In this document: positions 5,882 through 56,731 of the stretch, one piece after another
Position numbering within the stretch: the stretch's first letter is position 1
How the letters are laid out: each line of letters starts with the position of its first letter
Source of the DNA: a virus
Lineage: Duplodnaviria > Heunggongvirae > Uroviricota > Caudoviricetes
Reading direction: 5' to 3' (one strand)
Virus record (IMG/VR): IMGVR_UViG_3300014205_000186
Coordinates: 1-64,000 of that record
Length of the DNA: 64,000 nt
The notes under the pieces: generated by a model
Told to the model about the DNA's origin: nothing
Databases searched by the model: none
Seen by the model: only the letters and a program-made list of their open reading frames with translations
Translations under genes and position numbers: made by a program

Positions 5882-6070
5882 TTTTTTGAGAGGTATTCCT
5901 ACCGTCTGCTATGGCCACAGATGACTATAAATAAGGTAGGAGATTGTCGAGACGGTTCAATTCCTCTACTTCTCACTTTGCGACATTAATATAATGGTAT
6001 TATTTCTAATTTCCAATTAGACTACAAGAGTCCGATTCTCTTATGTCGCACTACTTTAACAGGAGTTTTT
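5882..6070. other. GC-richer structured intergenic region (possible sRNA or regulatory RNA)
   Basis: Inverted repeats ACCGTCT/AGACGGT, CCTACC/GGTAGG, GCGACAT...ATGTCGC and AGAG/CTCT; T-loop-like GGTTCAATTCC; local GC rise inside an AT-rich genome. Confidence 0.3.
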
Positions 6071-11464: not shown

Positions 11465-11739
11465 TAATAGAGTCCTATATTCAAGCTGGGGCTAATATTG
11501 CTAGTGAACCACTAAACAAAAAATATAATAATTACGAAAGTATTATCGGTTATAAACCCAATCTTATACTTGAAGATAATACTGAAAAGTTAAGAATTAT
11601 AAATAAAACACTAGAGAATTATGATTTATGTAAGATTCTCTATTGTCAATCTAACCTAGAACTAATAAAAGAACTTCAAAAAAGATATAAAATATTACTT
11701 TTAGTAAGAAACGTATTTGATGTAGCTATTTCTTTTAGA

Positions 11740-12075
11740 ATGGCTGAAATACTTCAAAAATGGCATAATCTTGGGGAACCACCAATAACCCCAAAAGAAA
11801 AAGTTATTGTTAGCCCCATCGAGTTTACTAATTATGTTTCTTATTTACTTGAAAATACACTTCAATACTCTAAGTTAAAGATTAGAAAAATATATTTTTA
11901 CGAAGATATTATAAATTACTGGGATTTATTTGTTTCAGATTTTTCTTATGAGGTTGGCTTCGAAGGTAAAGTTGAACAGAAAATAAGAAAGAATCCGGAA
12001 AAACCAAAAGATTTTATTGAAAACTATCAAGAATTAAGAGATATTTATGATAAATTTTACTCAAGATTGGTTTAG
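11740..12075 (+). CDS. hypothetical protein
   Basis: 111-aa ORF. Confidence 0.4.
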   Translation: MAEILQKWHNLGEPPITPKEKVIVSPIEFTNYVSYLLENTLQYSKLKIRKIYFYEDIINYWDLFVSDFSYEVGFEGKVEQKIRKNPEKPKDFIENYQELRDIYDKFYSRLV

Positions 12076-18760: not shown

Positions 18761-18831
18761 CGGGATGTAGCTCAATTGGTAGAGCATTGTCTGTACTACA
18801 AAGGTTTCATGTTCGAATCGTGACATTCCGG
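18761..18831 (+). tRNA. tRNA-like gene, anticodon GUA (Tyr-like), imperfect anticodon stem
   Basis: Acceptor CGGGATG/CATTCCG, D-arm GCTC-AATTGGTA-GAGC, T-arm TCATG-TTCGAAT-CGTGA; anticodon stem has only 4 bp plus a mismatch, position 26 is missing and position 37 is C. Confidence 0.4.
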
Positions 18832-19514: not shown

Positions 19515-19587
19515 TGGGTTGTAGCACAATTGGTCGTGCATCGGATTGTTAATCCGGCGGTTTCAGGTTCGAACCCTGACTTCCCAG
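19515..19587 (+). tRNA. tRNA-Asn (GUU)
   Basis: D-arm GCAC-AATTGGTC-GTGC, anticodon arm TCGGA-TTGTTAA-TCCGG, T-arm TCAGG-TTCGAAC-CCTGA; acceptor TGGGTTG/CTTCCCA has two U-U mismatches; no encoded CCA. Confidence 0.55.
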
Positions 19588-33860: not shown

Positions 33861-36800
33861 ATGTATACATACGAAGAAGCATTAAATAACAGTATTAAAT
33901 ATTTTAATGGAAATGAATTATCAGCAAAAGTATTTTTAGATAAATATGCGTTAAGAGATAGTAATAATAAGATTCTGGAAGATACTCCAGATAAAATGCA
34001 TAGAAGATTAGCTAAAGAATTTGCTAGAATAGAAAAAAATAAGTTTGAAAAGCCACTGAACGAAGAAGAAATATATACTTTATTTAAAAATTTTTCTCAT
34101 ATAATTCCTCAAGGTTCTCCATGTTTTGCTATAGGTAATAACTATCAAATAGCTAGTGCTAGTAATTGTTTTGTTTTAGAGTCTCCGGAAGATAGTTATG
34201 GCGGGATTTGTAAAACTGATGAAGAATTAGTCCAAATATCTAAAAGGCGTGGTGGTGTCGGTATAGACTTATCTAAATTAAGACCAAAAGGATCAGCCAC
34301 AAATAATTCTTCTAGATCATCTACCGGAATAAAATCTTGGATGACTAGATATTCAAATAGTATTAGAGAAGTTGGTCAATCTGGTCGTCGTGGCGCACTT
34401 ATGTTAACAGTTAGCGTTCATCATCCAGATATACTTGATTTTATTACTGCTAAAAATAACGGAATAGATATTACAGGGGCAAATATTTCTGTTAGATTAA
34501 CAGATGAATTTTTAAAAGCTGTAGAAAATAATAAAGAATATGAACTAAGGTTTCCAGTTGATTCTAAAAATGTTGTTAAAACAATTTCCGCAAACGAAAT
34601 ATGGAATTTAATTATTGATAACGCTTGGTCTAGAGCAGAACCAGGAATATTATTTTGGGATAACATATTAAAAGAATCTATTCCAGATTGTTACGAAGAA
34701 TATAAAACTATTAGTACGAACCCATCCTTAAGAAAAGGAACGTTGATTTTAACTAGTGAAGGACCAAGAAGAATTGAAACTTTAGAAAATTCTGAATTTC
34801 AAGTCTATAATTTAAACCATTCTTATTCTAAGGCTGTTTGTAAATTATCAGGAAAAAATCAAGAATTATACGAAGTAGAACTATCAAGTTGTTTTAAGTA
34901 TTATGCCACAAAAGAACATAGATGGGCAACTAATAATGGAGAAAAAACAACTTTAGAATTGTTACCCGGTGATAAAATTCCAATCCTTAAAAAGGACAAA
35001 GTTTTTAATGGTAATTTAGGAACAAGAGAAGACGGATTTTTAATAGGTTGGTTTTTAGGTGATGGATGGTTAACTGTTAGAAAAGATAACAATAAAAATC
35101 AATATGGATTTATAATTTCAGAAAAAGATAAAAATAGTAAAATTGGTGATATTATTTTATCTAAATTAAGACAAATAGGATTCAATGGCGAATGGATAGA
35201 AAGAAGTAGAGAAAATGCAATTTGGTATGAAATTAATACACAAAATAGTAAACTAGAAGATTATTTTAATTTATTTTATAATCCATGTAAAAATAAAGGT
35301 ATATCAAAAGAACTATTAGAAAAATCTTCCGAAGAATTTATAAAAGGTTTAGTTGATGGATATTTATCTTCAGATGGAAGTATTGATGAAAAAAGACAAA
35401 AAATAACTTTTGTATCAAAAAATAAAAAACTTTTAGAAGATTTTTCTGAAATTTTTGGTTTTTATGGAATTAGAAGTTCGATTAGATCTTCAGAATCTAA
35501 ATCTAGTTTTCCTAATGGTAAAAATTATAATAAAAAATATAAAAGAAACGATCTATATATATCCGATTCAGACTCAATAAAGCATTTTCAAAAATTGTTT
35601 AATTTATCATTAGATTATAAAGAAGAAAAATTAAGAAAAATGCTTGTTAGAAAATCTAATAATATAAATTACGTAAAAGTAAAAAATGTTAATAAAACAG
35701 ATCTAAAAGAAGACGTTTGGGATATTACCGTTAATGATAATAATAATTGTTTTAGTTTAAGTCATTGTATAACCCATAATTGTGGAGAAATTACTCTTAG
35801 TGCTAATGATAGTTGTCGTTTATTAGTTATTAATTTAATGAATTTTGTTAGATATCCATTTGATTCTAATGCATATTTTGATTTTATGGAATTTTATCAA
35901 TCTGCTCAAATAGCACAAAGATTAATGGATGATATTGTTGATTTAGAATTAGAAAAAATAGATACTATAATTCAAAAGATAAAAAAAGATCCAGAAGATA
36001 TTCTTTTAAAAAGAACAGAATTAAATTTATGGCAAAATATTGAAAGGGCTTGTGAATTTGGTAGAAGAACAGGTTTGGGGATTACTGCTTTAGGTGATAC
36101 TATTGCAGCTTGTGGTATTAAATATGGTTCTGATGAAAGTATAGAATTTACAGAAAAGGTTTATAAAACTTTAAAATTTGGCTCTTATAGATCTTCCGTA
36201 GATATGTCTAAAGAGCTTGGGTCATTTCCAGCTTGGAATTGGGAAAACGAAAAAAATAATCCTTTTCTATTAAGAATTAAAAATGAATTTCTATATTTAG
36301 CCCAAGAAGATTTATTTGAAGTACCTTTTCCATATGATTCATTATTAAACGGAGAAGATTTATATAACGATATAGCTAAATATGGTCGTAGAAATATAGC
36401 TAATTTAACTACTGCTCCAGTTGGTTCTTTATCTATTCTAGCATCGTATTTAATTTCCTTAAAAAGATTATTTAATACTACATCTGGAATAGAACCTTTA
36501 TATAGCTGGAAACCGTTTACTAAACGTAAAAAGGGAAACCCTGGTGATAATGATTTTAGAACCGATTTTATAGATCAAAGTGGGGATCATTGGATGGATT
36601 TTGATGTTTTTCATAGCGGTATTACAGCTTTTTTAAATAAAAATCCTGGTTCAACTGTAGAAGATTCTCCTTATTATGGTGGAAGCGCAGAAGAAATAGT
36701 TTGGACACAAAGAGTTAAATTACAAGCCGCCGCTCAAAAACACGTAGATCATAGTATTTCTAGTACTGTTAATTTACCCGAAAATGTTTCTAAAGAAGAA

Positions 36801-37397
36801 GTCGATAAAATATATCGAGAAGCATGGAAAAGTGGGTGTAAAGGGATTACAGTATATAGAGACGGTTGTAGAACCGGGGTCTTAATTAAAAAAGAAGAAA
36901 AACTTGCTTTAACTAATGCTACAAAAAGACCAAAATCATTATCTTGTGATATTTATAACATTTCGGTAACTAATAATAAATATACTGTTGTTGTTGGTTT
37001 ACTTAACGGAAATCCTTACGAAGTATTTTGTGTAGCTAATTTTATTGATAAACATAAACATGGAGAACTTGTTAAGGCTGGTAAAGGGAAATATGTTATT
37101 AAGACAACAGACGGAGAGTTAGAATTATCAGATTATTTAGAAGATGATACTCAAAATGCTCTATTAAGAATGGTTTCTACAAGTTTAAGACATGGTGCTA
37201 GTATTAAGTTTGTGATAGAACAGTTACAGAAAACTAAAGGTGATCTAACTAGTTTTACTAAGTGTGTTGCTAGAGCGCTTAAAAAGTATATTCAAGATGG
37301 TGATGGTTCTAGTGAGAAGTGCGAATGTGGAAATCAGCTTATCTATCAAGAAGGCTGTTTAACTTGTAAAAGTTGTGGCTATAGCAAATGTAATTAA
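33861..37397 (+). CDS. nrdJ: class II (adenosylcobalamin-type, NrdJ-like) ribonucleotide reductase interrupted by an intein
   Basis: Extein motif TNP|CGEITL split by a 352-aa insertion; C-terminal Zn ribbon CECGN...CLTCKSCGY; RNR-like conserved blocks. Confidence 0.8.
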   Translation: MYTYEEALNNSIKYFNGNELSAKVFLDKYALRDSNNKILEDTPDKMHRRLAKEFARIEKNKFEKPLNEEEIYTLFKNFSHIIPQGSPCFAIGNNYQIASASNCFVLESPEDSYGGICKTDEELVQISKRRGGVGIDLSKLRPKGSATNNSSRSSTGIKSWMTRYSNSIREVGQSGRRGALMLTVSVHHPDILDFITAKNNGIDITGANISVRLTDEFLKAVENNKEYELRFPVDSKNVVKTISANEIWNLIIDNAWSRAEPGILFWDNILKESIPDCYEEYKTISTNPSLRKGTLILTSEGPRRIETLENSEFQVYNLNHSYSKAVCKLSGKNQELYEVELSSCFKYYATKEHRWATNNGEKTTLELLPGDKIPILKKDKVFNGNLGTREDGFLIGWFLGDGWLTVRKDNNKNQYGFIISEKDKNSKIGDIILSKLRQIGFNGEWIERSRENAIWYEINTQNSKLEDYFNLFYNPCKNKGISKELLEKSSEEFIKGLVDGYLSSDGSIDEKRQKITFVSKNKKLLEDFSEIFGFYGIRSSIRSSESKSSFPNGKNYNKKYKRNDLYISDSDSIKHFQKLFNLSLDYKEEKLRKMLVRKSNNINYVKVKNVNKTDLKEDVWDITVNDNNNCFSLSHCITHNCGEITLSANDSCRLLVINLMNFVRYPFDSNAYFDFMEFYQSAQIAQRLMDDIVDLELEKIDTIIQKIKKDPEDILLKRTELNLWQNIERACEFGRRTGLGITALGDTIAACGIKYGSDESIEFTEKVYKTLKFGSYRSSVDMSKELGSFPAWNWENEKNNPFLLRIKNEFLYLAQEDLFEVPFPYDSLLNGEDLYNDIAKYGRRNIANLTTAPVGSLSILASYLISLKRLFNTTSGIEPLYSWKPFTKRKKGNPGDNDFRTDFIDQSGDHWMDFDVFHSGITAFLNKNPGSTVEDSPYYGGSAEEIVWTQRVKLQAAAQKHVDHSISSTVNLPENVSKEEVDKIYREAWKSGCKGITVYRDGCRTGVLIKKEEKLALTNATKRPKSLSCDIYNISVTNNKYTVVVGLLNGNPYEVFCVANFIDKHKHGELVKAGKGKYVIKTTDGELELSDYLEDDTQNALLRMVSTSLRHGASIKFVIEQLQKTKGDLTSFTKCVARALKKYIQDGDGSSEKCECGNQLIYQEGCLTCKSCGYSKCN
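34725..35780 (+). mobile_element. LAGLIDADG-type intein inside the RNR gene (352 aa)
   Basis: Begins with Ser after TNP, ends ...SHCITHN followed by Cys+1; two LAGLIDADG motifs GWFLGDGWL and LVDGYLSSDGS. Confidence 0.75.
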
Positions 37398-43447: not shown

Positions 43448-43940
43448 TGATAAAATTAATCTTTTAAGAGAATTACTATCTGATGACGATGTTAGAGAAA
43501 CGTTAAAAAAGATTTTATTAGAAGACCGTCCTAAAAAAGCGGTTAAAAAGAAAACTGTAACAAGCCCAAAGACTAAAGTAAAAGCAGTAGTTAAAAAGAC
43601 TACTACTAGAAAACCAAGAGTTAAGAAGCAGGAAGAACAAGAAAATTTTAAAACTAACAAGGTTGATAAATACTCAAAAGATTATGGAAGAAGTCACTTT
43701 GTTGATAATTTAACAGAAGCTCTTGAAGAAGAAGTTGAAGGTAAAAAAATAAATTTAATAGCAGAAAGTAAGAAGTTATCTAAGATAGCTAAAAAGAAAC
43801 CAAAGCAGATTAGACCTAAAAAGACTTTAAGTAAATTAAAATGTACTCAGTGTAATAAACACTTTTTTGGTGTAGGTGGATATTTGTGTGATAATTGTTT
43901 GAAAGGTAAAAACCCAGAGGATAAATTTAATGCTGAGTGA
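43440..43940 (+). CDS. basic Lys-rich protein with C-terminal zinc ribbon (probable DNA-binding)
   Basis: KKAVKKKTVTSPKTKVKAVVKKTTTRKPRVKK; CTQCNKHF...CDNC. Confidence 0.45.
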   Translation: MDNDKINLLRELLSDDDVRETLKKILLEDRPKKAVKKKTVTSPKTKVKAVVKKTTTRKPRVKKQEEQENFKTNKVDKYSKDYGRSHFVDNLTEALEEEVEGKKINLIAESKKLSKIAKKKPKQIRPKKTLSKLKCTQCNKHFFGVGGYLCDNCLKGKNPEDKFNAE

Positions 43941-46326
43941 TAAAGGTTGTGAAAGAGCTGTTTTATCTGGAATTTGTCAATATGGAGCAGAAGGATTTTT
44001 TGAAGTAAATGATATTTTGGATTCTTCTGTCTTTACAGATATTTCTAATCAGATTATTTTTTCTTGTTTAGAATATTTATTTGCCGCAGATATTAAGAAA
44101 GTAGATATTCCAGGTATCTTTTCTGCTGCGAATTCTTTAAAGTTCGAAAAACAAATTTGTGAGTCTAAGCAAAACCAAGAGTTTATTAGGTCGCTTTTTA
44201 ACTTCCCTATAGAGCTATCTAACTTGCGTTCTTACGCGATCAAAATAGTAAACCTATCCATAGCTAGAAACGCCCAAGGGAAGCTACAGAAGGCTTACAG
44301 AGAGCTTGAAGGGGTCACAGGAGACGAAGATACAGATAAGATAATAGAAATAACAGAATCTCCTTATTCAGAATTAATGAGAGAGCTTGTTAGGACAGAA
44401 GATGGCGGAGATATTGGTGAAGATATTGAAGAATATGTTAAAAATAAATTTGATAATCCAGTTAAAAATGTAGGTATACCTTCTCCTTTTCCTATATTTA
44501 ATAGTGTTATTGGTGATGGATTAAGAACAGGTGTACATTTAGTCGCGGCAAGATTGAAAGCTCTTAGATATGGTTCTAAAGTTTATACTAAAACTGGACC
44601 TATTAATATAGAAGATTGTAAAATTGGCCAAGAAATAGCTACTCCAACGGGTTTTGCTAAAATTGATGGGGTTCAAGATTTTCAAAACAAAGATATTTAT
44701 AGAGTTTATTTTAAAGATGGTGATTATGTAGATTGTTGTGAGGATCATATCTGGAGCGTAACTAAAGCTCATGATAGAAAAAAAAGAGAAGTATTAAAAA
44801 CAACAAAAGAATTAATAAATTACGGTATTTATAAAAATGGAAAAAAAAATAATAGATACTACTGGAATATTAAAATGCCAGAACCAGTATTATTTGAAGA
44901 TAAAAGTGTTCCAATAGACCCATATATACTAGGCTGTTTAATTGGTGATGGTTCTTTTAGAAATTCTATAACTTTGAGCGGTAATGATAAAGAAATTTTT
45001 GATTATTTTTATGAAAATCTTAAAGAATATAAAATAAAGGTTGAAAAATCTAATTGTGGATGTATTAGAATAAATAGTTTTCAAAATAAAATTAGAGAAG
45101 TTGGTCTTTATAAAGTAAAAGCTAGGTATAAATTTATACCAAAACAATATATTTATAATAATATAGAAACTAGATTAGAGATTCTTAGAGGATTGATGGA
45201 CACAGATGGTACTTGTGTGGTAAATCCAAGATCTAAAAATTCTAGATCTATATTTGGTACAACTTCTATTCAATTAGCAAAAGATATTAAAGAAATAGTT
45301 TGTTCTTTAGGAGGATTATGTAGTATTAAAAGGGTTAACCAAATATATAAAGGAAAACCATATTTATCATACAGTTGTGAAATAAGACTGGAAAACTTTA
45401 ATGTTTTTAAATTAAAAAGAAAAGCAGATAGAGTAACTGGTAGATTTTATAAAGTTAAAAGAATTATTTCCAAAATAGAAAAAGTTGGAGTTGATAATAC
45501 TAGGTGCATTAAAGTAAACTGTCCAAACGAGCTATTTTTAACAGATAATTATATAGTTACTCATAATACTGGAAAAAGCACCTTTGCTAAAGAAGTTGGG
45601 ATTCATGTTGCTAAAAATCTTAAAATACCAGTATTATTCATTGATAGCGAAATGAGTACAGAAGAACAAAAAGATAGAATCTTAGCAAGTATTGCAGAAT
45701 TAGATATTAGAAAAGTTGAAAAGGGCGGCTTATCACAAGCAGAAAAGGATAAATTAATCTATTCGGCTAAAGAACTGAAAAATATACCGTTTAAACATGA
45801 AAAAATAGCCGGGAAACCATTCAAAGAAGTTTTATCATTAATAAGACGCTGGATTAATCACAAGGTTGGTTATGGAGACGACGGTAAAGCTAATCCACAT
45901 CTTGTTATATATGATTATTTTAAACTAATGGATGTGGGAGATTTAAAAAATGCACAAGAATACCAATTAATGGGCTTTCAAATAGCTGCTTTACATGATT
46001 TTTGTACCGAAAATAATACGCCAGTTCTTTCGTTTGTACAAATTAATAGAGATGGAATTAATAAAGAATCAACAGATGTTATTGCTCAATCTGACAGATT
46101 AGGCTGGAATGCTATATCTTTAAGTATTTGGAAAAGAAAAACCCCAGAAGAAATTGGTCAAAATCCCAAAGCTGGTACGCACAAATTAGTTCCTTTAGAA
46201 GGTCGTTTTATGTCTAAACTTGATCCTGGAGATTATATTAATTATTATTTTGATGAAGCCAAATCTAAAATTACAGAGTTAAAAACAAGGTTTCAAAGTG
46301 AATCAGCAGATTTCGGACAAAATTGA
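43930..46326 (+). CDS. dnaB: DnaB-like replicative helicase interrupted by an intein in the P-loop
   Basis: Exteins ...GVHLVAARLK + TGKSTFAKEVG reconstitute a DnaB Walker A (AARPSMGKTTF-like); downstream DnaB-like IDSEMSTEEQ. Confidence 0.75.
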   Translation: MLSDKGCERAVLSGICQYGAEGFFEVNDILDSSVFTDISNQIIFSCLEYLFAADIKKVDIPGIFSAANSLKFEKQICESKQNQEFIRSLFNFPIELSNLRSYAIKIVNLSIARNAQGKLQKAYRELEGVTGDEDTDKIIEITESPYSELMRELVRTEDGGDIGEDIEEYVKNKFDNPVKNVGIPSPFPIFNSVIGDGLRTGVHLVAARLKALRYGSKVYTKTGPINIEDCKIGQEIATPTGFAKIDGVQDFQNKDIYRVYFKDGDYVDCCEDHIWSVTKAHDRKKREVLKTTKELINYGIYKNGKKNNRYYWNIKMPEPVLFEDKSVPIDPYILGCLIGDGSFRNSITLSGNDKEIFDYFYENLKEYKIKVEKSNCGCIRINSFQNKIREVGLYKVKARYKFIPKQYIYNNIETRLEILRGLMDTDGTCVVNPRSKNSRSIFGTTSIQLAKDIKEIVCSLGGLCSIKRVNQIYKGKPYLSYSCEIRLENFNVFKLKRKADRVTGRFYKVKRIISKIEKVGVDNTRCIKVNCPNELFLTDNYIVTHNTGKSTFAKEVGIHVAKNLKIPVLFIDSEMSTEEQKDRILASIAELDIRKVEKGGLSQAEKDKLIYSAKELKNIPFKHEKIAGKPFKEVLSLIRRWINHKVGYGDDGKANPHLVIYDYFKLMDVGDLKNAQEYQLMGFQIAALHDFCTENNTPVLSFVQINRDGINKESTDVIAQSDRLGWNAISLSIWKRKTPEEIGQNPKAGTHKLVPLEGRFMSKLDPGDYINYYFDEAKSKITELKTRFQSESADFGQN
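44560..45567 (+). mobile_element. LAGLIDADG-type intein in the helicase (N-terminal boundary ambiguous: Ala at 44560 or Cys at 44617)
   Basis: Hint block A-like ALRYGSKVYTKTGPINIED / CKIGQEIATPTGFAKIDGV; block B DHIWSV; LAGLIDADG LGCLIGDGSF and LRGLMDTDGT; ends IVTHN then Thr+1. Confidence 0.65.
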
Positions 46327-48390: not shown

Positions 48391-49425
48391 ATGAAATTTA
48401 TCTCTCTATACAAAAACATATTAACAAAACAATTTTTAGAACATGAATATATAGTTAAAAGAAGATCTATTATAAATATAGCAAATGAAATAAATTGTAG
48501 TACAAATACTATATATGCGTATTTAAGAAAATATGGTATAGAAGTAGAAAAAAGAAACGGCGAAATAAAACCTGGTCAAAAATTTAACAAACTAACAGCT
48601 ATAAAAGTTGTATCAAAAAGTAAAAATGGTACGTTTATATGGGAATGTTTATGTGATTGTGGTAATATTTCTAAAGTTAGAACATGTCAATTAAAAAATA
48701 ATACAACAAAAAGTTGCGGATGTATTTGCGGAAAGTCGCACGCAAATTGGTCTGGATACAAAGATATAAGCGGTAATTTCTTTTCTGGAGTTAAATCATC
48801 TGCTAAAACAAGAAATATTAATTTTAATATAACAATAGAAGATATTTGGAATTTATATCTAAATCAAAATAAAAAATGTTACTTATCAAATATTGAAATT
48901 CATTTTAATCAATATAAAGAAACTGCGTCGGTAGATAGAATTAATAGTTTATTAGATTATAATATTAATAATATAGCAATATGTCACAAAGATATTAATA
49001 AAATCAAAGCTTCTTTTTTAATAGAGGATTTTATAAAATATTGTAGATTAATAAGTTGTTTTAATAGTAAATTTAAGGCTATAGAAATAGATTTTAATTT
49101 ATCTAAGAGTTATTTTAAAGATTTGAAATATAACGCTAAAAGAAGAGGTAAAGATTTTTATATTAGTATTGAGGATATTGGAATAATATTTAAAAAGCAA
49201 GGTGGAGTATGTGCTTTAACAGGATTAGAATTAACATTTCCAACTAATTCAAAAGACTATAGAAATAGAATTCATAATTTTTCAGTAGATAGAATAGATA
49301 ATAAATTAGGATATTATATTAATAATATTCAAATTGTTCATAAGCTAATAAACCAATCAAGGAAAGATCTAGAAATAGATTATTATAAAGAATTATGTCA
49401 GAAAATCAGTCTATCAAACAATTAA
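48391..49425 (+). CDS. protein with N-terminal Cys cluster and two tandem degenerate HNH_3-like domains
   Basis: WECLCDCGNISKVRTCQLKNNTTKSCGC; repeats ...CYLSNIEIHF...SVDRINSLLDYNINNIAICHKDINKIK and ...CALTGLELTF...SVDRIDNKLGYYINNIQIVHKLINQSRK. Confidence 0.5.
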   Translation: MKFISLYKNILTKQFLEHEYIVKRRSIINIANEINCSTNTIYAYLRKYGIEVEKRNGEIKPGQKFNKLTAIKVVSKSKNGTFIWECLCDCGNISKVRTCQLKNNTTKSCGCICGKSHANWSGYKDISGNFFSGVKSSAKTRNINFNITIEDIWNLYLNQNKKCYLSNIEIHFNQYKETASVDRINSLLDYNINNIAICHKDINKIKASFLIEDFIKYCRLISCFNSKFKAIEIDFNLSKSYFKDLKYNAKRRGKDFYISIEDIGIIFKKQGGVCALTGLELTFPTNSKDYRNRIHNFSVDRIDNKLGYYINNIQIVHKLINQSRKDLEIDYYKELCQKISLSNN

Positions 49426-51212
49426 ATTGGGTTCCTTTCCATATACATTCGACATACTCGATTTTAGATGGTATTATTAAGCCAGATAAACTTGCTAAAA
49501 GATGTAAAGAACTTGGATATAAACACTGTATGATAACAGATCATGGCAGCGTATCTGGTTTTATTAAATTTGCTACCGCAATGAAAAAAGAAGGTATTAT
49601 TCCGATTTTAGGAACAGAATTCTACTTATCTTATAAAGATTCTACTATTCAAGATGCCGATAATAGAAAACTTTTTCATATGGTTGTTTGTGCTAAAAAT
49701 AAAGCTTCTTGGACCAATCTTGTAAAAGCTATATCAGAAAGTAATAGAAAAGAGAATTTTTATTATAAGCCAAGACTGGATACTGAAAAATTAGCTAATA
49801 TTATTGGTGATTCTTGTTATATTTTCTCTGGTCATCCAGGATCATATTTGTGGGATTTTAAAACAGAAAACGAAATTATTACCGGAATAGAGTATTTAAA
49901 GGGTTTGTTTGGTAATAATCTTTATTTAGAACTACAAAGGTTTATTAGAGATTCAGAAGTAGATTCTCATATTAACCTTCTTAAATCTGCTGGAGAAAAG
50001 ACTAATACCCCGGCGATAGCTTGTATAGATGCTCATTATACTAATCAAGAAGATGTTAATTTACACAGAATAGTTTTATGTTCTAATCTACATAAGACTC
50101 TTCCTCAAATCAATAGAATGAAATCTGGAGATAAACCAATGGGAGTTTTCTTTGAAAAAGATTACTTCTATGTTCCTTCTTTAGATGAATTAAAGGATTT
50201 TGGCCATTCTGATGAAGAACTAGACATGTCTTCAATTACCAGTAATATTGAAAGCTTTGATTTACAAGAACAGCCAAGATTACCAAAATTCGTTGATGAC
50301 GAAGAAGAATATTTTAGAGAACGCTGTAGAGAAGGGTTTAAGGCTAAAAGAACTGTTTTATGGGATTCTAAGTATGTTGATAGAGTTAAATATGAACTAG
50401 ATGTTTTAACAGAAGCTAAATTATCTGGATATTTTCTTATTGTTTCTGATTATATTAACTGGGCAAAAAATAAGGGAATTCTTGTTGGTCCAGCTAGAGG
50501 TTCTAGTTTAGGTAGCTTAGTTTGCTATCTTTTAAATATAACCTCGATAGATCCTCTACCATATAATTTAGATTTTGAAAGATTCTATAATAGCTCAAGA
50601 AATACAAAAGATAACATTTCTCTTCCAGATATAGATACAGATTTTCCAGCTAATCTTAGAGAACAAGTAATTGAGTATATTCGTAATAAATATGGTAAAG
50701 ATAGGGTTTGTCAAATTGCAACATTTGGTACTTTGAAAGGAAAAGCTGCTTTAAAAGAGGTTTTTAGAGTTTGTGAAGTATGTGACTTTGAAACCATGAA
50801 TACAATAACTAAGCCAATGCCTAATGAGGCTGATATTGCAGATGAATTAGAGGAACAGGGAGAAGAATCAATTATTTCATGGTGTTTAAGAAATCAGCCA
50901 AAAATGTTTCAAGATTATTGTTATATCGAAAACGATGAACTAAAAGGTGAATATGCTCAATATTTTGAAATAGCTATTGAACTAGAAGGTATTCATAAAT
51001 CCCAAGGTAAACATGCTGCTGGATTAATCGTATCAAGAGATCCACTAGCAGATATTTCACCATTAATTTATGATAAATCTGGAGAAGCTATTGTCGCTTT
51101 AGATAAAAAAGATGCTGAAAAAATAGGTCTTGTTAAGTTTGACATATTAGGACTTTCTTGTTTGGATAAGCTAATGAGTGTTAATAATTTATTAAGAACC
51201 GGAAAAATATGA
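49395..51212 (+). CDS. dnaE: DNA polymerase III alpha (DnaE) fragment 1: PHP domain to start of palm
   Basis: NWVPFHIHSTYSILDG...MITDHGSVSGF (PHP); ends ...GLVKFDILGLSCLDKL where E. coli DnaE has FDFLGLKTLT. Confidence 0.8.
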   Translation: MSENQSIKQLNWVPFHIHSTYSILDGIIKPDKLAKRCKELGYKHCMITDHGSVSGFIKFATAMKKEGIIPILGTEFYLSYKDSTIQDADNRKLFHMVVCAKNKASWTNLVKAISESNRKENFYYKPRLDTEKLANIIGDSCYIFSGHPGSYLWDFKTENEIITGIEYLKGLFGNNLYLELQRFIRDSEVDSHINLLKSAGEKTNTPAIACIDAHYTNQEDVNLHRIVLCSNLHKTLPQINRMKSGDKPMGVFFEKDYFYVPSLDELKDFGHSDEELDMSSITSNIESFDLQEQPRLPKFVDDEEEYFRERCREGFKAKRTVLWDSKYVDRVKYELDVLTEAKLSGYFLIVSDYINWAKNKGILVGPARGSSLGSLVCYLLNITSIDPLPYNLDFERFYNSSRNTKDNISLPDIDTDFPANLREQVIEYIRNKYGKDRVCQIATFGTLKGKAALKEVFRVCEVCDFETMNTITKPMPNEADIADELEEQGEESIISWCLRNQPKMFQDYCYIENDELKGEYAQYFEIAIELEGIHKSQGKHAAGLIVSRDPLADISPLIYDKSGEAIVALDKKDAEKIGLVKFDILGLSCLDKLMSVNNLLRTGKI

Positions 51213-51862
51213 GAAAAGCTACCCAGTCTCAAATAGAAACATTTCATGAGTTTAATATTTTATTAGACACTAGAGAAATATTTCTTCATGGTCAAGATAC
51301 AGAAGATTCTGGAACAGATCATAGAATGGCTGCTGGTTTTATTAAAAATCTTAGAATACTTGAAAGATCAAATGAACCAATAATAATTCATCAACACAAT
51401 ATTGGAGGCTCTTGGGATTCTGGAATGGCTATATATGACGCGATTAAATATAGTCCTTGTAGATTTATTTTTATTTGTTATGGCATCGCGGCATCTATGG
51501 GTTCTATTATTCCTCAATCTGTATTAGATAAAGGGTATAGGGTTAGTATGCCAAATTGCGATTGGCTGATCCATGAAGGAGATTTATATTTAGATGGTAT
51601 TTATACACAGGTTAAATCAAATCTAGATTATATGAATATTAATAAACACGCTATGTACGAGATATATACCGATTGTTGTTGTGGAGGTATATTTTTCGAA
51701 ACATATTCTAGATCTAAAGTTAAAGCTTTTTTAAAGAGAAAAATAAGAGAAAAAACCGATTGGTGCTTTGGATCTAAAGAGGCATTAGAATATGGTTTTG
51801 TTGATGGAATTTTGGGTGAAGAAGAATTTAAAAATATTAAAACAATTTTAGAGAGCTTATAA
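51209..51862 (+). CDS. ClpP-like serine protease
   Basis: GGSWDSGMAIYDAIKYSPC...YGIAASMGSII...CDWLIHEG parallels the ClpP Ser-His motif segments. Confidence 0.6.
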   Translation: MRKATQSQIETFHEFNILLDTREIFLHGQDTEDSGTDHRMAAGFIKNLRILERSNEPIIIHQHNIGGSWDSGMAIYDAIKYSPCRFIFICYGIAASMGSIIPQSVLDKGYRVSMPNCDWLIHEGDLYLDGIYTQVKSNLDYMNINKHAMYEIYTDCCCGGIFFETYSRSKVKAFLKRKIREKTDWCFGSKEALEYGFVDGILGEEEFKNIKTILESL

Positions 51863-51961
51863 TGGAAAGTAAAATACATGGATATATTTATTTAATTACT
51901 AAAATATTTAAAACTTTAGAAGATGCAATAAAATTTAAAACAAATATAGACAAGGAAAACA

Positions 51962-52624
51962 ATGCCAATACATAATTCAACTTATTTAATGTATGATTTT
52001 GAAACGGGTTCAAGAAATCCGTATACTACACAAGCTATTCAAATAGCAGCTATAGCAATAGAACCAAGAAGTCTAGAAGTTGTTCCAGGAAGTGAATTTG
52101 AATCTTTAATTAAACCAGAGTTTGACGAAATTAAATGTAAAGAGCTTGAAATTGACATGTTAGAGGATCAGGCTTTAGCCGTTAATGGTAAAACTAGAGA
52201 AGAATTAGCAGAAGCACCGCAATTAAAAGTTGTTTGGAAATCTTTTACGCAATATTGTATGAACTATAATCCATCTGGAAAGAAATGGACAGCACCTTGT
52301 TTGGTTGGTTTTAATAATATAGGTTTTGATAATGTAATTCTTAATAGAATGGCTAAACAATATGGTCCCTGGGATTCCGAACGAGAACAATGTAATCTAT
52401 TTAACCCGATTATTAAGCTAGATTTAATGCAGATGCTATTACCGTGGTTTGAATCAGAATATAATTTAAAAACTATCAGTATGGATAATATGAGAGATTT
52501 TCTAGGTATGTCTAAAGAGGGTGGCCACGATGCTTTACAAGACGTTCGTGATCAAGCTGAAATATTCATAAAAACTATGAAATTAACAAGAAAATGTTCT
52601 AAGGTAGTAACGTGGAAAAAATAA
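51962..52624 (+). CDS. DnaQ-like 3'-5' exonuclease (DEDDh)
   Basis: Exo I MYDFETGS, Exo II GFNNIGFDNVIL, Exo III GGHDALQDVRD. Confidence 0.7.
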   Translation: MPIHNSTYLMYDFETGSRNPYTTQAIQIAAIAIEPRSLEVVPGSEFESLIKPEFDEIKCKELEIDMLEDQALAVNGKTREELAEAPQLKVVWKSFTQYCMNYNPSGKKWTAPCLVGFNNIGFDNVILNRMAKQYGPWDSEREQCNLFNPIIKLDLMQMLLPWFESEYNLKTISMDNMRDFLGMSKEGGHDALQDVRDQAEIFIKTMKLTRKCSKVVTWKK

Positions 52625-53166
52625 ATTTAACAAATAAAAAATTTGGAAGAATAACGGCTTTATATCCCACTGAAGAAAGAAAATATAGAGCTATTGTATG
52701 GCAATGTAAATGTGATTGCGGAAATTATATTAATGTAACTATACAATCATTAAAAAGCGGTAATACAAAAAGCTGTGGATGTTCTAGATATAAATATAAT
52801 TATAAAGAAGAAAAATTATTAAAGTATTTTACATCTTTGGATTTTTCTGCGAAAAGAAGAAAAATAGAATTTAAAATTACTTTAGATGACATATATAAAC
52901 AATGGTATGACCAAAACGGATTATGTAATTATACTAATATAAAATTAAAACTACCATATGAAAAAGATGAATTTACCGGATCAATTGATAGAATTAATAG
53001 TTCTATTGGATATACTAAAAATAATATACAATGGATTTTAAAAGAAATTAATTTTATGAAAGGTAATATGTCTGAAAGTAAATTTAAAACTATTTGTAGA
53101 CTAGTATCAAATGGTGAAAATAATGTTTTTAATTTTTGGGAGTCTTACGAAAACGAGTTGAGATAA
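52612..53166 (+). CDS. protein with N-terminal Cys cluster and degenerate HNH_3-like domain
   Basis: WQCKCDCGNYINVTIQSLKSGNTKSCGCS; ...GLCNYTNIKL...SIDRINSSIGYTKNNIQWILKEINFMK. Confidence 0.5.
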   Translation: MEKINLTNKKFGRITALYPTEERKYRAIVWQCKCDCGNYINVTIQSLKSGNTKSCGCSRYKYNYKEEKLLKYFTSLDFSAKRRKIEFKITLDDIYKQWYDQNGLCNYTNIKLKLPYEKDEFTGSIDRINSSIGYTKNNIQWILKEINFMKGNMSESKFKTICRLVSNGENNVFNFWESYENELR

Positions 53167-53384
53167 TGTTTTTTAAAAAGCAAAAAGAAAAAGAGAGCAA
53201 GTATACTGAAGGTTTTAATGCTGCGTATTATTCACATAGTAATAGTAAAAACCCGTACAACTATCTTAAAGAAGAAAAAGAGCATAGAGAATGGTTTACT
53301 GGATATACGGACGGTATTAATGCTACAAATATTATGATGAATAAAAGTATTTTTAATTATAGCAACCCAAAATGTAGTGGATAA
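53136..53384 (+). CDS. hypothetical protein
   Basis: 82-aa ORF. Confidence 0.35.
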   Translation: MGVLRKRVEIMFFKKQKEKESKYTEGFNAAYYSHSNSKNPYNYLKEEKEHREWFTGYTDGINATNIMMNKSIFNYSNPKCSG

Positions 53385-53386
53385 AA

Positions 53387-53734
53387 ATGATTATTAGAAC
53401 TGATAGTATAAAAGAAATTAGTAATATTATATGTGATAATATTCTAATAAAAGATAAAACAGTAATTATTATTGATAGTAAACCAATTATAGATCTTATT
53501 ACAAAAGATGTTTTATTACATATAGAAAAATATTATTTAGATATCAATATAAGAATATCAGACCTAGATTTTAAACAAATAGGTGAATTCATTTTAATGG
53601 GTATTATTGACGGTTCTCGTATTAGAGGTTTAAGGGCTAAAAATATTATCATATATAATTATGAAATTTTGAAAGAAAAATACAAAGATCATATTGAAAA
53701 TATTATTAATGGTTATAATGCTATTAGTGAGTAG
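53387..53734 (+). CDS. hypothetical protein
   Basis: 115-aa ORF. Confidence 0.4.
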   Translation: MIIRTDSIKEISNIICDNILIKDKTVIIIDSKPIIDLITKDVLLHIEKYYLDINIRISDLDFKQIGEFILMGIIDGSRIRGLRAKNIIIYNYEILKEKYKDHIENIINGYNAISE

Positions 53735-53760
53735 AAATAAATTATTAAATAGGATGAAAA

Positions 53761-54654
53761 ATGTATTATAAGTTTGCTTGCGGCTGTAAATTTAAACAGC
53801 TTGATAGTGTTGTAAAAGATTGCGATGGATTACCATCTATTGAGCTTGATTATTATAATTTACCAGAATGCCCAAACGTTTGGCCAATGTTAGCTACTGG
53901 TAAAACTAAGGGGGTATTTCAATTAGAAAAATCTCTCGGTAAACACTGGTGCAAAGAATTATACCCAGAGAATATTCATCACTTAGCTGCTTTGGCAAGT
54001 ATACTACGTCCTGGGATATTAGAAAGTATTGTAGATGATAAGAGTTTAACACAGCATTATTGCGATAATAAGAACCATAGACAAGAAGTTATTCCTATGC
54101 ATCCAGCTTTAGAAAAGATTCTTGAAGATACTCAACAAATTATTATCTTTCAAGAACAAATTCTATTAATAGCTAAAGAGATAGCTGGTTTTACTGGTGT
54201 TGAAGCCGATACTTTAAGAAGAGGTATTGGTCATAAAGATGCCAAAGTTGTTTTTGAAATGGAAAAGAAATTTATTGATGGTTCTGTTAGGGTTGGAAAA
54301 ATAACGGAACAAGACGCCAAAAATATATTTGATATTATTAAAAAATCTGCCAGGTACAGTTTTAATGCGTGCTTAAGTCCAGAAACAGTTGTAGAAACTA
54401 AAAGCGGATATAAAACTATTGAAGAACTTAACATTGGAGAATTTATAAAAGCCCCAAACAAAAATATTGAAGAATTTATTGAAGTTACCAATAAAATAGA
54501 GCAAGGTACACAAGAAGTTTATGAGATTACATTAGAATCTGGTAAAACAATAGAATGTACAATAGACCATAAATTCTTATGTGAAGATGGTTCTATTATT
54601 CCACTTTGGCAAATTATAGAAGAAAATAAAAAAATTATTTGTGAAAACGAATAA
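53761..54654 (+). CDS. dnaE: DnaE fragment 2 (palm/fingers segment) fused to the N-terminal half of a split intein
   Basis: ...GKTKGVFQLEKS...ALASILRPG... (DnaE) ends ...SARYSFNA then intein N CLSPETVVETKSGYKTIEEL...TIDHKFL, stop after about 94 intein residues. Confidence 0.8.
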   Translation: MYYKFACGCKFKQLDSVVKDCDGLPSIELDYYNLPECPNVWPMLATGKTKGVFQLEKSLGKHWCKELYPENIHHLAALASILRPGILESIVDDKSLTQHYCDNKNHRQEVIPMHPALEKILEDTQQIIIFQEQILLIAKEIAGFTGVEADTLRRGIGHKDAKVVFEMEKKFIDGSVRVGKITEQDAKNIFDIIKKSARYSFNACLSPETVVETKSGYKTIEELNIGEFIKAPNKNIEEFIEVTNKIEQGTQEVYEITLESGKTIECTIDHKFLCEDGSIIPLWQIIEENKKIICENE

Positions 54655-55699
54655 AAAGAGTATTTATTAGTATGAGACTTACTAATAAAGGGCATTCTAT
54701 GGATTACGATATTAAAAAAGAAGAATGGCATAATTGTAAACTGTGCAACAAAAAAATAGAAGATTTAGCAAAAATATTTGGCGGATCAAATGTATATTAT
54801 ACAAAAGTTTTTATAAAACATTTAAAAGAAGATCATAATATCTCAAAAGAAGAATATTTTGAAAAATTTACCAAAAGACCTATTTGTAAATGTAATATAT
54901 GTAATAAAAACGTAGATATAAAAACTCGCGGATCAAAATTTTCTTGGAAAGAATATAAATGCGGAAGATTTAAAGGTATAATGGAATGGTCAGAAAAGGC
55001 TAAAGAAACTAGGAAAGGTAAAAATAATCCAATGTATGGGGCGACCCCTTGGAATAAAGGATTAGATAATTCTGACCAAAGAATAAAAGCTATTGCTGAT
55101 AAAAGAAGGGGAATAAAAACAAGTAAAGAAACTAAGAAAAAACAAAAAGAATCAGCTTTAAAAAGAATAGTTCATGGACATACTGGTAAAAAACATTCGG
55201 AGGAAACTAAGAACTTCTTAAGAAAAAATACTTTAAGGCTTATTAAAGAGGGAAAACTTTGCGGAACAACTAAAACAAAGCCACATTTAGAGTTTGAAAA
55301 AATATTAATTAAAAACCATATTAAATATGAAGAAGAAAAAATTGTAAGTTATTGGTCTTTTGATTTTTATTTAGTTGATTATAATGTTTATATTGAGGTT
55401 GATGGAGACTATTGGCACTCTAATCCAAAAACATATCCAAATGGACCAAAAACAAAATCTCAAAAAATAAATTATGCTAGAGACTTATCGAAAAATAAAT
55501 ATTGCATTAAAAATAATTTAACCCTATATAGATATTGGGAATGCGATATTTTAAACAGTATTGATAAAATTGAAAAGGAATTATTGTGCAAGCTGAAAAA
55601 ATTATAAATATTAAACATATTGGTAAAAAAAGAACTGTTGATATTACTGTAAATAGCGACTCTCATATATTTTATGGTAATGGTATAGCAACCTCAAAT
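54370..55699 (+). mobile_element. naturally split intein with intervening free-standing endonuclease gene (fractured-gene arrangement)
   Basis: Int-N 54370-54651 (Cys1, block B T..H); endonuclease ORF 54672-55607; Int-C 55586-55699 (...RTVDITVNSDSHIFYGNGIATSN then Ser+1 of the SHAYAYG extein). Confidence 0.7.
54672..55607 (+). CDS. free-standing homing-type endonuclease: NUMOD-repeat DNA-binding region + Vsr/DUF559-like PD-(D/E)xK nuclease domain
   Basis: NUMOD-like repeats GKNNPMYGATPWNKGL, GIKTSKETKKK, HGHTGKKHSEETK; C-terminus FDFYLVDYNVYIEVDGDYWHSNPKTY...LTLYRYWECD (Vsr/DUF559-like). Confidence 0.65.
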   Translation: MRLTNKGHSMDYDIKKEEWHNCKLCNKKIEDLAKIFGGSNVYYTKVFIKHLKEDHNISKEEYFEKFTKRPICKCNICNKNVDIKTRGSKFSWKEYKCGRFKGIMEWSEKAKETRKGKNNPMYGATPWNKGLDNSDQRIKAIADKRRGIKTSKETKKKQKESALKRIVHGHTGKKHSEETKNFLRKNTLRLIKEGKLCGTTKTKPHLEFEKILIKNHIKYEEEKIVSYWSFDFYLVDYNVYIEVDGDYWHSNPKTYPNGPKTKSQKINYARDLSKNKYCIKNNLTLYRYWECDILNSIDKIEKELLCKLKKL

Positions 55700-56731
55700 A
55701 GTCATGCTTATGCTTATGGTACTATTGGTTATTGGACAGCATTTGCTAAAAACCATTTTCCATTACATTTTTACGCGGCTTATATAGCTCATGCTAAAGA
55801 TAAACAAGATCCAAAAGAAGAAATTAAAGAGCTTGTAGATGATGCTAGAAACTTTGGGGTAGAAATTGTTCCTCCGCATGTTAGTTCTCTAAAAAATAAT
55901 AGAAGTGGCGATGTTACAATTGAAGATCAAAAAATACTATTTGGTATCATTGATATTAAGGGCATAGGACAAAAACAAATAGAAAAACTATATGATTCTA
56001 TTCAAGAAAAAGAAAAGGTTTTAAATAAGGATATTAAGAAATGGTCTTGGAATGATTTTCTTTTTAACGCTAATGTGAGTTCTACAGTTGTAAATAACTT
56101 AATATTAGTTGGAGCAACTCCAGGTGGTGTACCTCGCAAACAAAAAGCATATGAATACTCTATCTTCCAAAATTTAACAGAAAGAGAATTTAACTGGTTT
56201 GCCGAACACTATCAAGAATATGAAAACTTTGCTGATTCTTTGGAAAAATATTCTACTATAGAAAGAAAAGAGGGCGGACCTTCAAATGTTAAAAGAAAAG
56301 CTTTTATAGAAGATTCTGCAAAAAGCCTTAAAAATTCTCCATATTCAACAAAAGATCATCCAGACTGGATTGTAGCTAATGAAAGAGAATATATTGGAAT
56401 TCCTATAACCTATTCTTCTACAGAAAACAAAATGGTTAATACAGGAATGACCTGTGCTGACTTTTTAGGTGGTAAAAGAGGAAAAATAAACATTTTAGTA
56501 GAAATATCTTCATTTAAAGAGTATACTATTAAAAAGGGACAGAATGCTGGCTTGTTAATGTGTGTTCTTGAATTAAAAGATTCAACAGAATCAATTACCG
56601 GAATTATGTTTCATGAAGACTATAAGGAAAATCAAGAGTATTTATTTGATGGTAATGTTGTTTTAGTTGCCGGATTTAGAAGTAAAAAAGATCCTAATTG
56701 TTTAATTATTAATAAGGTAGAACAAGTATGA
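55586..56731 (+). CDS. dnaE: C-terminal half of the split intein fused to DnaE fragment 3
   Basis: After ...ATSN the extein SHAYAYGTIGYWTAFAKNHFPLHFYAAYIAH matches DnaE [22 protein letters not shown]... Confidence 0.8.
   Translation: MQAEKIINIKHIGKKRTVDITVNSDSHIFYGNGIATSNSHAYAYGTIGYWTAFAKNHFPLHFYAAYIAHAKDKQDPKEEIKELVDDARNFGVEIVPPHVSSLKNNRSGDVTIEDQKILFGIIDIKGIGQKQIEKLYDSIQEKEKVLNKDIKKWSWNDFLFNANVSSTVVNNLILVGATPGGVPRKQKAYEYSIFQNLTEREFNWFAEHYQEYENFADSLEKYSTIERKEGGPSNVKRKAFIEDSAKSLKNSPYSTKDHPDWIVANEREYIGIPITYSSTENKMVNTGMTCADFLGGKRGKINILVEISSFKEYTIKKGQNAGLLMCVLELKDSTESITGIMFHEDYKENQEYLFDGNVVLVAGFRSKKDPNCLIINKVEQV

Follow-up and report, generated by a model that had tools for sequence, protein, structure and literature searches.

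The window analysed here (64,000 nucleotides of the Caudoviricetes record IMGVR_UViG_3300014205_000186) carries the polymerase gene dnaE in pieces. The reading frame stops at 51212 and restarts at 53761, and the gap between the halves (51212/53761) holds five ORFs: a ClpP-like gene, a DEDDh exonuclease, an HNH-like endonuclease and two small ORFs. Further downstream, the second half is cut again by a split intein. The locus comprises the following features:

48391..49425, plus strand: HNH-like endonuclease gene, 344 aa, outside the polymerase; overlaps the dnaE-N start by 31 nt
49395..51212, plus strand: dnaE-N (fragment 1), 605 aa; PHP, palm, thumb and the first helix past the third catalytic Asp (Pfam, alignments)
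51209..51862, plus strand: ClpP-like gene, variable passenger (Pfam CLP_protease, E 1.8e-24)
51962..52624, plus strand: DEDDh 3'-5' exonuclease, presumed proofreading subunit (Pfam RNase_T, E 2.5e-11)
52612..53166, plus strand: free-standing HNH-like endonuclease gene, 184 aa (PHROG endonuclease/HNH families, E 6e-22 to 3e-15)
53166..53384, plus strand: small ORF of 72 aa, counted from its ATG at 53166 (orthologue in the related locus L001)
53387..53734, plus strand: 115-aa ORF (neither Pfam nor PHROG match)
53761..53883, plus strand: Cys-rich head of dnaE-C, an extra segment of ~26 residues, MYYKFACGCKFKQLDSVVKDCDGLPS, and the residues up to the invariant W41
53761..54369, plus strand: first extein of dnaE-C, 203 aa, start of the fingers (Pfam, Taq alignment)
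54370..54654, plus strand: split-intein N-terminal half, beginning at C204 (CLSPETVVETK...) (Pfam, structure matches)
54672..55607, plus strand: homing-endonuclease-like gene, free-standing, flanked by the two intein halves (PHROG HNH/homing endonuclease, E 1e-14; weak Pfam Vsr)
55586..55699, plus strand: split-intein C-terminal half of 38 aa, ending ...IATSN, then Ser (read from the sequence)
55700..56731, plus strand: second extein of dnaE-C; remaining fingers, helix-hairpin-helix region and OB fold (alignment, Pfam)

The product of dnaE-N matches the Pfam family PHP with residues 15-182 (E 4e-31) and covers the palm model DNA_pol3_alpha end to end with residues 305-586 (model 1-260/260, E 3e-74). 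The motifs HIH16-18, DIDTDF412-417 and KFDILG581-586 are present and all catalytic aspartates are intact. The protein, which ends in ...GLVKFDILGLSCLDKLMSVNNLLRTGKI*, aligns to residues 5-635 of Thermus aquaticus Pol III alpha (2hpi) and 5-563 of E. coli alpha; its tail corresponds to native DnaE sequence and contains a Cys588 that is not conserved. Fragment 2 takes up at Taq residue 635, and the junction is without missing residues: the ORF 53761-54654 matches the Pfam fingers model DNA_pol3_finger with residues 28-177 (E 3e-34), and the first extein aligns to Taq alpha 635-816. The sequence AGGA lies 8 nt upstream of its ATG. The break thus falls at about Taq residue 635, the boundary of palm and fingers, and not between PHP and palm as a first, sequence-only reading had labelled it, because fragment 1 consists of PHP and the complete palm/thumb and fragment 2 begins with the fingers. 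The catalytic core, which in a DnaE-type C-family polymerase lies on a single polypeptide, is here distributed over two.

Compared with contiguous DnaE, only about 25-30 residues are extra at the junction, and they belong to the Cys-rich head of dnaE-C. Among 20 C fragments C7, G8, C9, C37 and W41 are invariant, and AlphaFold2 predicted three beta strands in the head (residues 2-4, 10-18 and 25-28; pLDDT 84-89). The head also occurs in the related loci L011 and L012, and is absent from the contiguous relatives and from the split loci L003 and L013. As it is missing in these two split lineages, it cannot be a universal docking device.

The cut within dnaE-C follows a known arrangement. In the N-terminal intein half, the Pfam signals for Intein_splicing and Hint (residues 198-275) are both below the cut-off, and the DnaE split-intein structures 7qil, 4lx3 and 2keq are matched with E 4e-7 to 4e-6. 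The extein resumes at SHAYAY, residue 39 of the ORF with the C-terminal intein half, and this second extein aligns to Taq alpha 814-905. Its Pfam matches are at or below the cut-off (HHH_6 with 24.8 bits against 25.6, OB weak); we counted the fingers, helix-hairpin-helix and OB order of a DnaE-type polymerase as present. The spliced C subunit has 546 aa, as does the C gene of L006, which lacks an intein. Fingers motifs such as GVFQLE are invariant among the C fragments. Three DnaE loci in which a free-standing endonuclease gene accompanies a split intein are known from ocean metagenomes (Dassa et al. 2009, PMC2677866).

The presence of a DnaQ-like exonuclease inside the split polymerase locus was confirmed. 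The DEDDh gene matches the PHROG family 'DNA polymerase exonuclease subunit' (E 5e-17), and its best PDB match is the PolC-type exonuclease domain 2p1j (E 4e-6). The residues D12, E14, D123, H189 and D194 are invariant in six orthologues, and the motifs Exo I (DxE), Exo II (D) and Exo III (Hx4D) are all present. An orthologue of this gene is the only one found between the dnaE halves in every split locus examined (the window and nine others). Based on gene position and family membership, the exonuclease is most likely the proofreading subunit of the polymerase.

The remaining genes of the gap are variable. The ATG of the ClpP-like gene overlaps the dnaE-N stop as ATGA; the gene is found in the gap of L001 and L006 and is missing from L003, L007, L008, L011, L012 and L013. 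The 72-aa ORF has its orthologue in L001 at 11629-11847 (65% identity, dN/dS 0.32), while its Pfam match to RMF is sub-threshold (22.4 bits vs a cut-off of 27.9). The 115-aa ORF is not present in L001, where a 207-nt gap takes its place. The 184-aa HNH-like ORF gave no match in a Pfam search, and the 344-aa gene upstream of dnaE-N is its paralogue (BLASTP E 6e-29), the nuclease-like part being duplicated; in L006 and L007 a GIY-YIG gene occupies this upstream position.

Outside the window, we compared nine split loci from other samples (L001, L002, L003, L006, L007, L008, L011, L012 and L013) together with a set of fragment-1 homologues (n=269) made up of the best 120 of the 90%-identity clusters (44-90% identical) and of 50%-identity representatives. 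The same split point was seen in all nine loci, each with the gene order N, variable genes, exonuclease, variable genes, C; the shortest form, in L013, is N-exonuclease-C where stops and starts overlap. Each of the 120 best 90%-identity clusters is about 570-640 aa long, or longer with inteins but with the same end, and every dnaE-N tail that could be placed by motif stops 20-37 residues past KFDILG. Altogether, 259 of the 269 homologues are split at the same site, down to about 35% identity; four are truncated and six contiguous, the latter belonging to the same clade with 35-41% identity by BLASTP and 39-46% by HMMER. A break shared this widely is therefore far older than any current insertion, and the notion of a recent event is not supported. 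DnaE thus exists as two genes, without an intein at the break, in hundreds of uncultured phage relatives, and we found no prior description of this break in the literature. The genomes of the clade are about 150-200 kb in size.

Both halves are under purifying selection, with dN/dS values of 0.09-0.21 overall (dnaE-N: 0.14-0.21, first extein of dnaE-C: 0.09-0.18), and they diverge in step (N and C 82/82% identical to L001 and 72/71% to L006). Taken together with the distribution among the homologues, the break in dnaE is old and selected, and no recent accident.

How the break arose is a separate question. The sequence-only reading had blamed the HNH-like gene, in the manner of the Aeh1 nrdA/mobE 'genes-in-pieces', and such a recent insertion in this genome would fit an HNH-like gene in the gap, its paralogue just upstream of dnaE-N and the GIY-YIG and LAGLIDADG endonuclease genes in the gaps of relatives. 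However, the HNH-like gene is located 1.4 kb off the break, flanked by the exonuclease gene and the small ORF, and it is absent from the gaps of L001, L002, L006, L008, L011 and L013, all of which share the break. In L001, position 11629 is both the end of the exonuclease gene and the start of the small ORF, and the HNH-like gene here occupies exactly that site. The N fragments of the same-break relatives without the gene are about 81% (L001, L002), 72% (L006) and 46% (L008) identical to ours. As an insertion of later date that closer relatives lack, the HNH-like gene is not the cause of the split, and a break found in 259 of 269 homologues leaves a recent HNH-like insertion very improbable. 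A mobile insertion may still be the remote origin.

Another account, which we regard as possible but less likely than not, starts from the exonuclease: its intercalation between N and C would have founded, at the root of the clade, an obligate minimal replicase of three subunits, with the Cys-rich beta module as a later metal-binding clamp and the contiguous genes as secondary re-fusions. The form N-exonuclease-C, cited for this account, is still found in L013 and nearly so in L008. Neighbour-joining trees do not decide between one old split with re-fusions and repeated splits.

With regard to function, the two halves might no longer cooperate: dnaE-N could act alone as a PHP nuclease/pyrophosphatase or with a host factor, and dnaE-C could have another role. 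A separate polypeptide could in principle gain such a role, and nothing direct speaks for uncoupled halves. Against this, N and C are always found in one locus and diverge at equal rates, neither the catalytic residues of the polymerase in N nor the fingers motifs in C vary, and the examined part of the replication module contains no other replicative polymerase gene. We therefore hold uncoupling to be improbable.

Even less probable is a covalent rejoining of the halves, be it through recoding, an intron, an atypical split intein or an intein that escaped recognition, although a split intein lies 600 bp downstream in the same gene, inteins are common in the clade and the C head forms a small module rich in beta structure. 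A second intein would have been betrayed by Hint motifs; neither fragment 1 nor the head of fragment 2 has a Pfam Hint or intein match, so that the break stands as originally described, with a stop, a restart, five ORFs in between and no Hint at the junction. An Rfam scan of the window returned three tRNAs as the sole matches and no intron family. Furthermore, the N tail is native DnaE sequence without a conserved Cys588, the 20 C heads have no invariant Asn ahead of the conserved C37, and the 2.5-kb gap contains conserved, selected genes. The roughly 25-30 unaccounted junction residues are far too few for a Hint fold. Finally, misassembly, a frameshift or the decay of a polymerase gene in a phage using the host replicase can practically be dismissed. 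Single metagenomic contigs may contain errors, but ten loci from different samples and assemblers, the window included, share the same stop and restart. The dN/dS values and intact catalytic motifs also argue against these readings, and a 179,427-bp contig on record encodes the identical fragment-2 protein.

We consider it likely, on sequence and analogy, that the locus encodes a DnaE-type C-family replicase from two genes that assembles non-covalently, and that this form has been passed down through a large clade of uncultured phages. The dnaE-N gene encodes PHP, palm and thumb with the three catalytic aspartates and the helix after the third; fingers, helix-hairpin-helix region and OB fold come from dnaE-C. 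N and C would never be covalently joined; subunit association would bring the fingers down over the active site of the palm. The docking surface is probably formed by the helix LDKLMxVNNLL, conserved at the C terminus of dnaE-N, together with the Cys-rich beta module in most lineages. The exonuclease encoded between the two would most likely join as a third subunit for proofreading, and the common direction of the genes with their overlapping or close stops and starts suggests joint expression. In this genome, trans-splicing would in addition repair the split-intein cut in dnaE-C to give the 546-aa C subunit. Because dnaE is broken without an intein at 51212, the polymerase must here be built from three polypeptides, as had been proposed, with one junction closed by trans-splicing and the other left open. 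The ClpP-like, HNH-like and small ORFs would be passengers accumulated in the gap. Both the association of N with C, for which selection and precedent speak, and the polymerase activity are presumed.

Compared with the DnaE enzymes of T. aquaticus (2hpi) and E. coli (5fku), the phage proteins show the same domain order of PHP, palm, thumb, fingers, helix-hairpin-helix and OB, the same catalytic motifs and significant matches over the whole length. In contrast to bacterial and other phage DnaE, the phage form consists of two genes: the break lies just past the third catalytic Asp, an exonuclease gene separates the two, and the C part carries the extra Cys-rich head. In surveys of DnaE from cells, intein-split and frameshifted genes are the only such cases mentioned (PMC3919608). 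The junction at 54370-55699 has exactly the arrangement of the 'fractured genes' (PMC2677866), in which a Vsr-like/HNH endonuclease gene lies between intein halves; the junction 51212/53761 differs in having neither intein halves with their nucleophiles nor repair by splicing, and only the exonuclease is fixed in its gap.

For split phage replication enzymes, non-covalent reassembly has precedents in gene 43A/43B (Aeromonas phage 25) and nrdA (Aeh1), and the new terminal tails at the break of Aeh1 nrdA are needed for function (PMC2988022, PMC3045599). Like these T4-like 'genes-in-pieces' (43A/43B of phages 25 and 44RR, Aeh1 nrdA-a/nrdA-b), the dnaE locus specifies an essential replication enzyme as two polypeptides, here with presumed reassembly, has endonuclease genes in the gap and has a novel terminal tail in the form of the dnaE-C head. 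The combination of an endonuclease gene at the break with contiguous close relatives is not found here. Gene 43A/43B encodes a family B instead of a C-family polymerase, and the T4-like splits occur in few closely related phages with contiguous close relatives, whereas the dnaE split spans hundreds of lineages and always has a functional partner gene, the exonuclease, in its gap.

In this respect the locus recalls PolC of Firmicutes, which likewise has a DEDDh exonuclease within the linear order of a C-family polymerase and whose exonuclease domain type is the best solved match of the phage protein. The PolC exonuclease is a domain of the same chain, inside PHP, whereas in the phage the exonuclease has a gene of its own downstream of the palm, in a polymerase whose chain is broken. 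If intercalation of the exonuclease gene did found the split, the locus would be the gene-level counterpart of the exonuclease insertion in PolC.

The dnaE region belongs to a co-directional replication module in an AT-rich (~29% GC), phage-like genome.

Genes of the replication module in their order, and tRNA genes of the window
43930-46326, DnaB-type helicase with a probable intein
next, primase, then PD-(D/E)XK nuclease
48391-49425, HNH-like gene (344 aa)
49395-51212, dnaE part 1 (dnaE-N; fragment 1, 605 aa)
51209-51862, ClpP-like gene
51962-52624, DEDDh exonuclease
52612-53166, second HNH-like gene (184 aa)
53166-53384, small ORF, one of two at this place
53761-54654, dnaE part 2 (start of dnaE-C, N-intein half at its end; fragment 2)
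next, homing-endonuclease-like gene
55586-56731, dnaE part 3 (C-intein half at its start, then the rest of dnaE-C; fragment 3)
next, SSB-like region, then glycosyltransferases
5980-6050, plus strand, tRNA gene (Rfam)
18761-18831, plus strand, tRNA gene (Rfam)
19515-19587, plus strand, tRNA gene (Rfam)

Fragment 1 matched the Pfam PHP model and the full-length DNA_pol3_alpha palm/thumb model, and fragment 2 matched the fingers model. On the solved structure of Thermus aquaticus (Taq) Pol III alpha, fragment 1 ends and fragment 2 begins at residue 635, and fragment 3 picks up at residue 814; on E. coli alpha, fragments 1 and 2 align to residues 5-563 and 595-761. The meeting of both ends at Taq residue 635 indicates that no polymerase sequence is lost at the junction (51212/53761). 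The sequence-only reading had rightly recognized that dnaE is broken by a stop with a later restart and that three polypeptides are needed with one junction left open; the break recurs in loci from independent samples. It had placed the break between PHP and palm, but the actual site is the palm-to-fingers transition, one helix past the third catalytic aspartate (KFDILG, residues 581-586). The dnaE-N stop and the ClpP-like start overlap as ATGA, and an AGGA lies 8 nt 5' of the fragment 2 ATG. Promoter and terminator scans stayed at background level and gave no information. The dnaE part 2 protein is also on record, in identical form, from a 179,427-bp contig.

The best reading of this locus is a non-covalently assembled two-subunit replicase of the C family, the function of which we infer from selection on its genes and from the precedent of other split enzymes. 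The dnaE-N and dnaE-C products would associate without a covalent link, the DEDDh exonuclease would be a likely third subunit, and all genes of the locus would probably be co-expressed from the single co-directional, tightly packed cluster. In the window genome, trans-splicing would restore the C subunit first.

In dnaE-N, dN/dS ranged over 0.14-0.21, and in dnaE-C, measured for its head and fingers part, over 0.09-0.18; with dS near saturation, these figures are rough. The N and C halves have diverged in parallel (82% and 82% identical to the related locus L001, 72% and 71% to L006), and the window's C subunit, once spliced, is 546 aa long, exactly like the C gene of L006, which lacks an intein. 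Taken together, low dN/dS, matched divergence and equal C length indicate that both halves are functional genes sharing one history. That the halves serve separate functions is unlikely, as they are co-located, co-diverge and retain intact catalytic and fingers motifs.

Covalent rejoining of the halves is very unlikely. A Hint signal was found in the two fragments only at residues 198-275 of fragment 2, where it represents the downstream split intein. Compared with contiguous relatives, the split form has ~25-30 extra residues, mainly a ~26-residue head of dnaE-C (MYYKFACGCKFKQLDSVVKDCDGLPS...); the unaccounted residues are too few for a Hint fold, and candidate nucleophiles are not conserved. 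The Rfam scan detected no introns in the window and matched only the three tRNAs. C7, G8, C9, C37 and W41 of dnaE-C are invariant across 20 C fragments, and AlphaFold2, run on a shallow alignment, predicted three short beta strands within head residues 2-28 (pLDDT 84-89). The Cys motif also occurs in L011 and L012 and is absent from L003 and L013, which makes the Cys head a common, not a universal, sequence feature of split forms. No Cys or His of dnaE-N turned out to be conserved in split forms alone, as would be expected of a residue that shares a metal site with the C head.

Inteins, some of them putative, occupy other sites too. Close relatives differ in the site of the dnaE-C split intein: it follows ...RYSFNA and precedes SHAYAY in the window (53761-56731), and it lies 16 residues later, after ...WTAYSK, in L001 (12054-15009). 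L003 has a full-size intein at a third site in the fingers domain, and dnaE-C of L006, L007 and L008 has none. The DnaB-type helicase ORF of the window is 798 aa long versus 461-487 aa in L006-L009; this excess (~320 aa) and a LAGLIDADG-looking stretch (ILGCLIGDGSF) make a full intein with homing endonuclease probable. In the ribonucleotide reductase large-subunit ORF (33861-37397, 1178 aa), PHROG matches fall into two blocks (residues 22-235 and 641-1177), a pattern suggestive of a ~400-aa insert such as an intein.

The idea of a recent, endonuclease-made break is contradicted by the distribution of the split form. Among 269 homologues, collected as 90%-identity clusters and by an exhaustive search of 50%-identity representatives, 259 are split at the same place, six are contiguous and four truncated. 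The top 120 matches to fragment 1 among the 90%-identity clusters span 90% to 44% identity; they are ~570-640 aa long and consist of PHP and palm only, apart from four longer members that bear inteins and share the end point. All C-terminal tails that could be placed by motif end 20-37 residues past KFDILG, with a conserved LDK(L/I)Mx(V/I)xxLL. Judged by these homologues, the break is a character of the whole clade and not local to the window. A DNA-level search of GenBank phages found no relative and a protein-level search only DnaE at <=34% identity, which leaves the clade, by this measure, with no cultured or deposited member. A scan of bacteria and archaea, one genome per species, gave no match >41% identity and no hint of a host. 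Independent contigs with the same break, together with selection on the halves, exclude an artefact or a pseudogene.

Gap contents between dnaE-N (N) and dnaE-C (C) in related loci, with identity to fragment 1
L001 (81%): N, GIY-YIG, ClpP, 88 aa, LAGLIDADG, exonuclease, small ORF, C
L002 (81%): N tail and C head same as L001
L006 (72%): N, ClpP, exonuclease, two ORFs, C
L007 (56%): N, two ORFs, exonuclease, GIY-YIG, C
L008 (46%): N, 62 aa, exonuclease, C
L003 (43%): N, cytosine methyltransferase-like, MazG-like, 142 aa, exonuclease, C (labels read from translations)
L011: N, three ORFs, exonuclease, C
L012: N, 152 aa, UDG, 239 aa, exonuclease, 88 aa, R2K, 86 aa, C
L013: N, exonuclease, C; stops and starts overlap

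The HNH-like gene in the gap, which the earlier reading had suggested as the mobile insertion behind the split, matched PHROG endonuclease/HNH families and no Pfam model. Its paralogue, the 344-aa ORF directly 5' of dnaE-N, contains the nuclease-like C-terminal region of the gap gene twice. The gap gene itself sits exactly between the exonuclease stop and the small-ORF ATG, two genes that abut in L001. Because it is missing from the gap of six relatives with the same break (L001, L002, L006, L008, L011 and L013), its distribution marks it as a late, free-standing endonuclease insertion into a gap already open and not as the cause of the split. In other relatives the gap has taken up GIY-YIG or LAGLIDADG genes. 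Since L006 and L007 carry an opposite-strand GIY-YIG gene at the position of the 344-aa ORF, this comparison makes the intergenic site upstream of dnaE-N another hot spot of mobile endonuclease genes. The locus cleanly illustrates how a gap opened in an essential gene turns into a landing pad for such genes and other passengers.

The exonuclease is the sole gene constant in the gap across the split loci examined; six aligned copies are orthologous, with invariant DEDDh residues. The window copy shares only 55% identity with the L001 and L006 copies, and these two share 78% with one another, whereas the flanking dnaE halves are closer (82% and 72%, respectively); this gene may have been exchanged or may evolve faster. 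The ClpP-like gene inside the replication module is kept in L001 and L006 (dN/dS 0.34-0.40) and absent from more distant relatives; its motifs GIAASMG and LIHEG look like the sites of two ClpP catalytic-triad residues, Ser and His.

The six contiguous proteins (P0132, P0141, P0151, P0153, P0172 and P0251) are unbroken at the junction and lack the Cys head; their identities are 35-41% by BLASTP and 39-46% by HMMER. L010 has an orthologous exonuclease (37% identity, E 3e-42) two genes 5' of its contiguous dnaE. In L009, a 239-aa ORF was the single upstream candidate compared and proved not to be the exonuclease, and no called gene of the locus matched RNase_T. In neighbour-joining trees with nine outgroups, split and contiguous forms together were monophyletic in 39 of 40 bootstrap replicates; with one or nine outgroups, the contiguous six fell into two small groups within the clade, and split forms alone were monophyletic in 0/50 and 0/40 replicates. 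The tree base is star-like and the method crude; the topology slightly favours an old split followed by re-fusions.

Other phage DnaE proteins also appear in pieces. A distant one in L005 (10004-13991; 34% identity) is encoded in three ORFs (391, 454 and 343 aa), broken at positions other than those of the clade; its gaps of 150-270 nt may be introns or other breaks. In the Bacillus phages Edson, WH1 and Jayan, DnaE matches fall into two pieces or two annotated genes. Among Pseudomonas phage records in GenBank, 302 match fragment 1 and only 9 the fingers fragment, which may reflect weaker fingers conservation or DnaE homologues in which the fingers are lacking or diverged.

To our knowledge, C-family replicases are regarded as single-chain catalytic subunits, and the natural splits recorded for them are intein-mediated and mended by splicing. 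On the evidence of its homologues, the locus adds a C-family member to the naturally split replication enzymes of phages. Its split is ancient and widespread and has a putative proofreading exonuclease gene in the gap. Palm and fingers on separate chains have been selected in hundreds of phage lineages, and this persistence suggests that a C-family active site can be assembled from two subunits. The system offers structural biologists a natural case for studying fingers closure and subunit docking. Annotators of viral metagenomes should take from it that a ~600-aa "DNA polymerase III alpha" gene is neither a truncated gene nor a pseudogene.

An intein-less palm/fingers split of DnaE was not found in the open-access literature, including PMC2677866 and the cellular DnaE surveys PMC3919608 and PMC12926913, which yielded intein-based or unrelated cases only. 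A DnaE split intein with endonuclease, as at the downstream junction, is known from ocean metagenomes (PMC2677866). Precedents for the reassembly of split enzymes are the family-B polymerase of Aeromonas phage 25, the halves of which (genes 43A/43B) co-purify and are active (PMC2988022), and the split NrdA of Aeh1, in which new tails at the break are required (PMC3045599).
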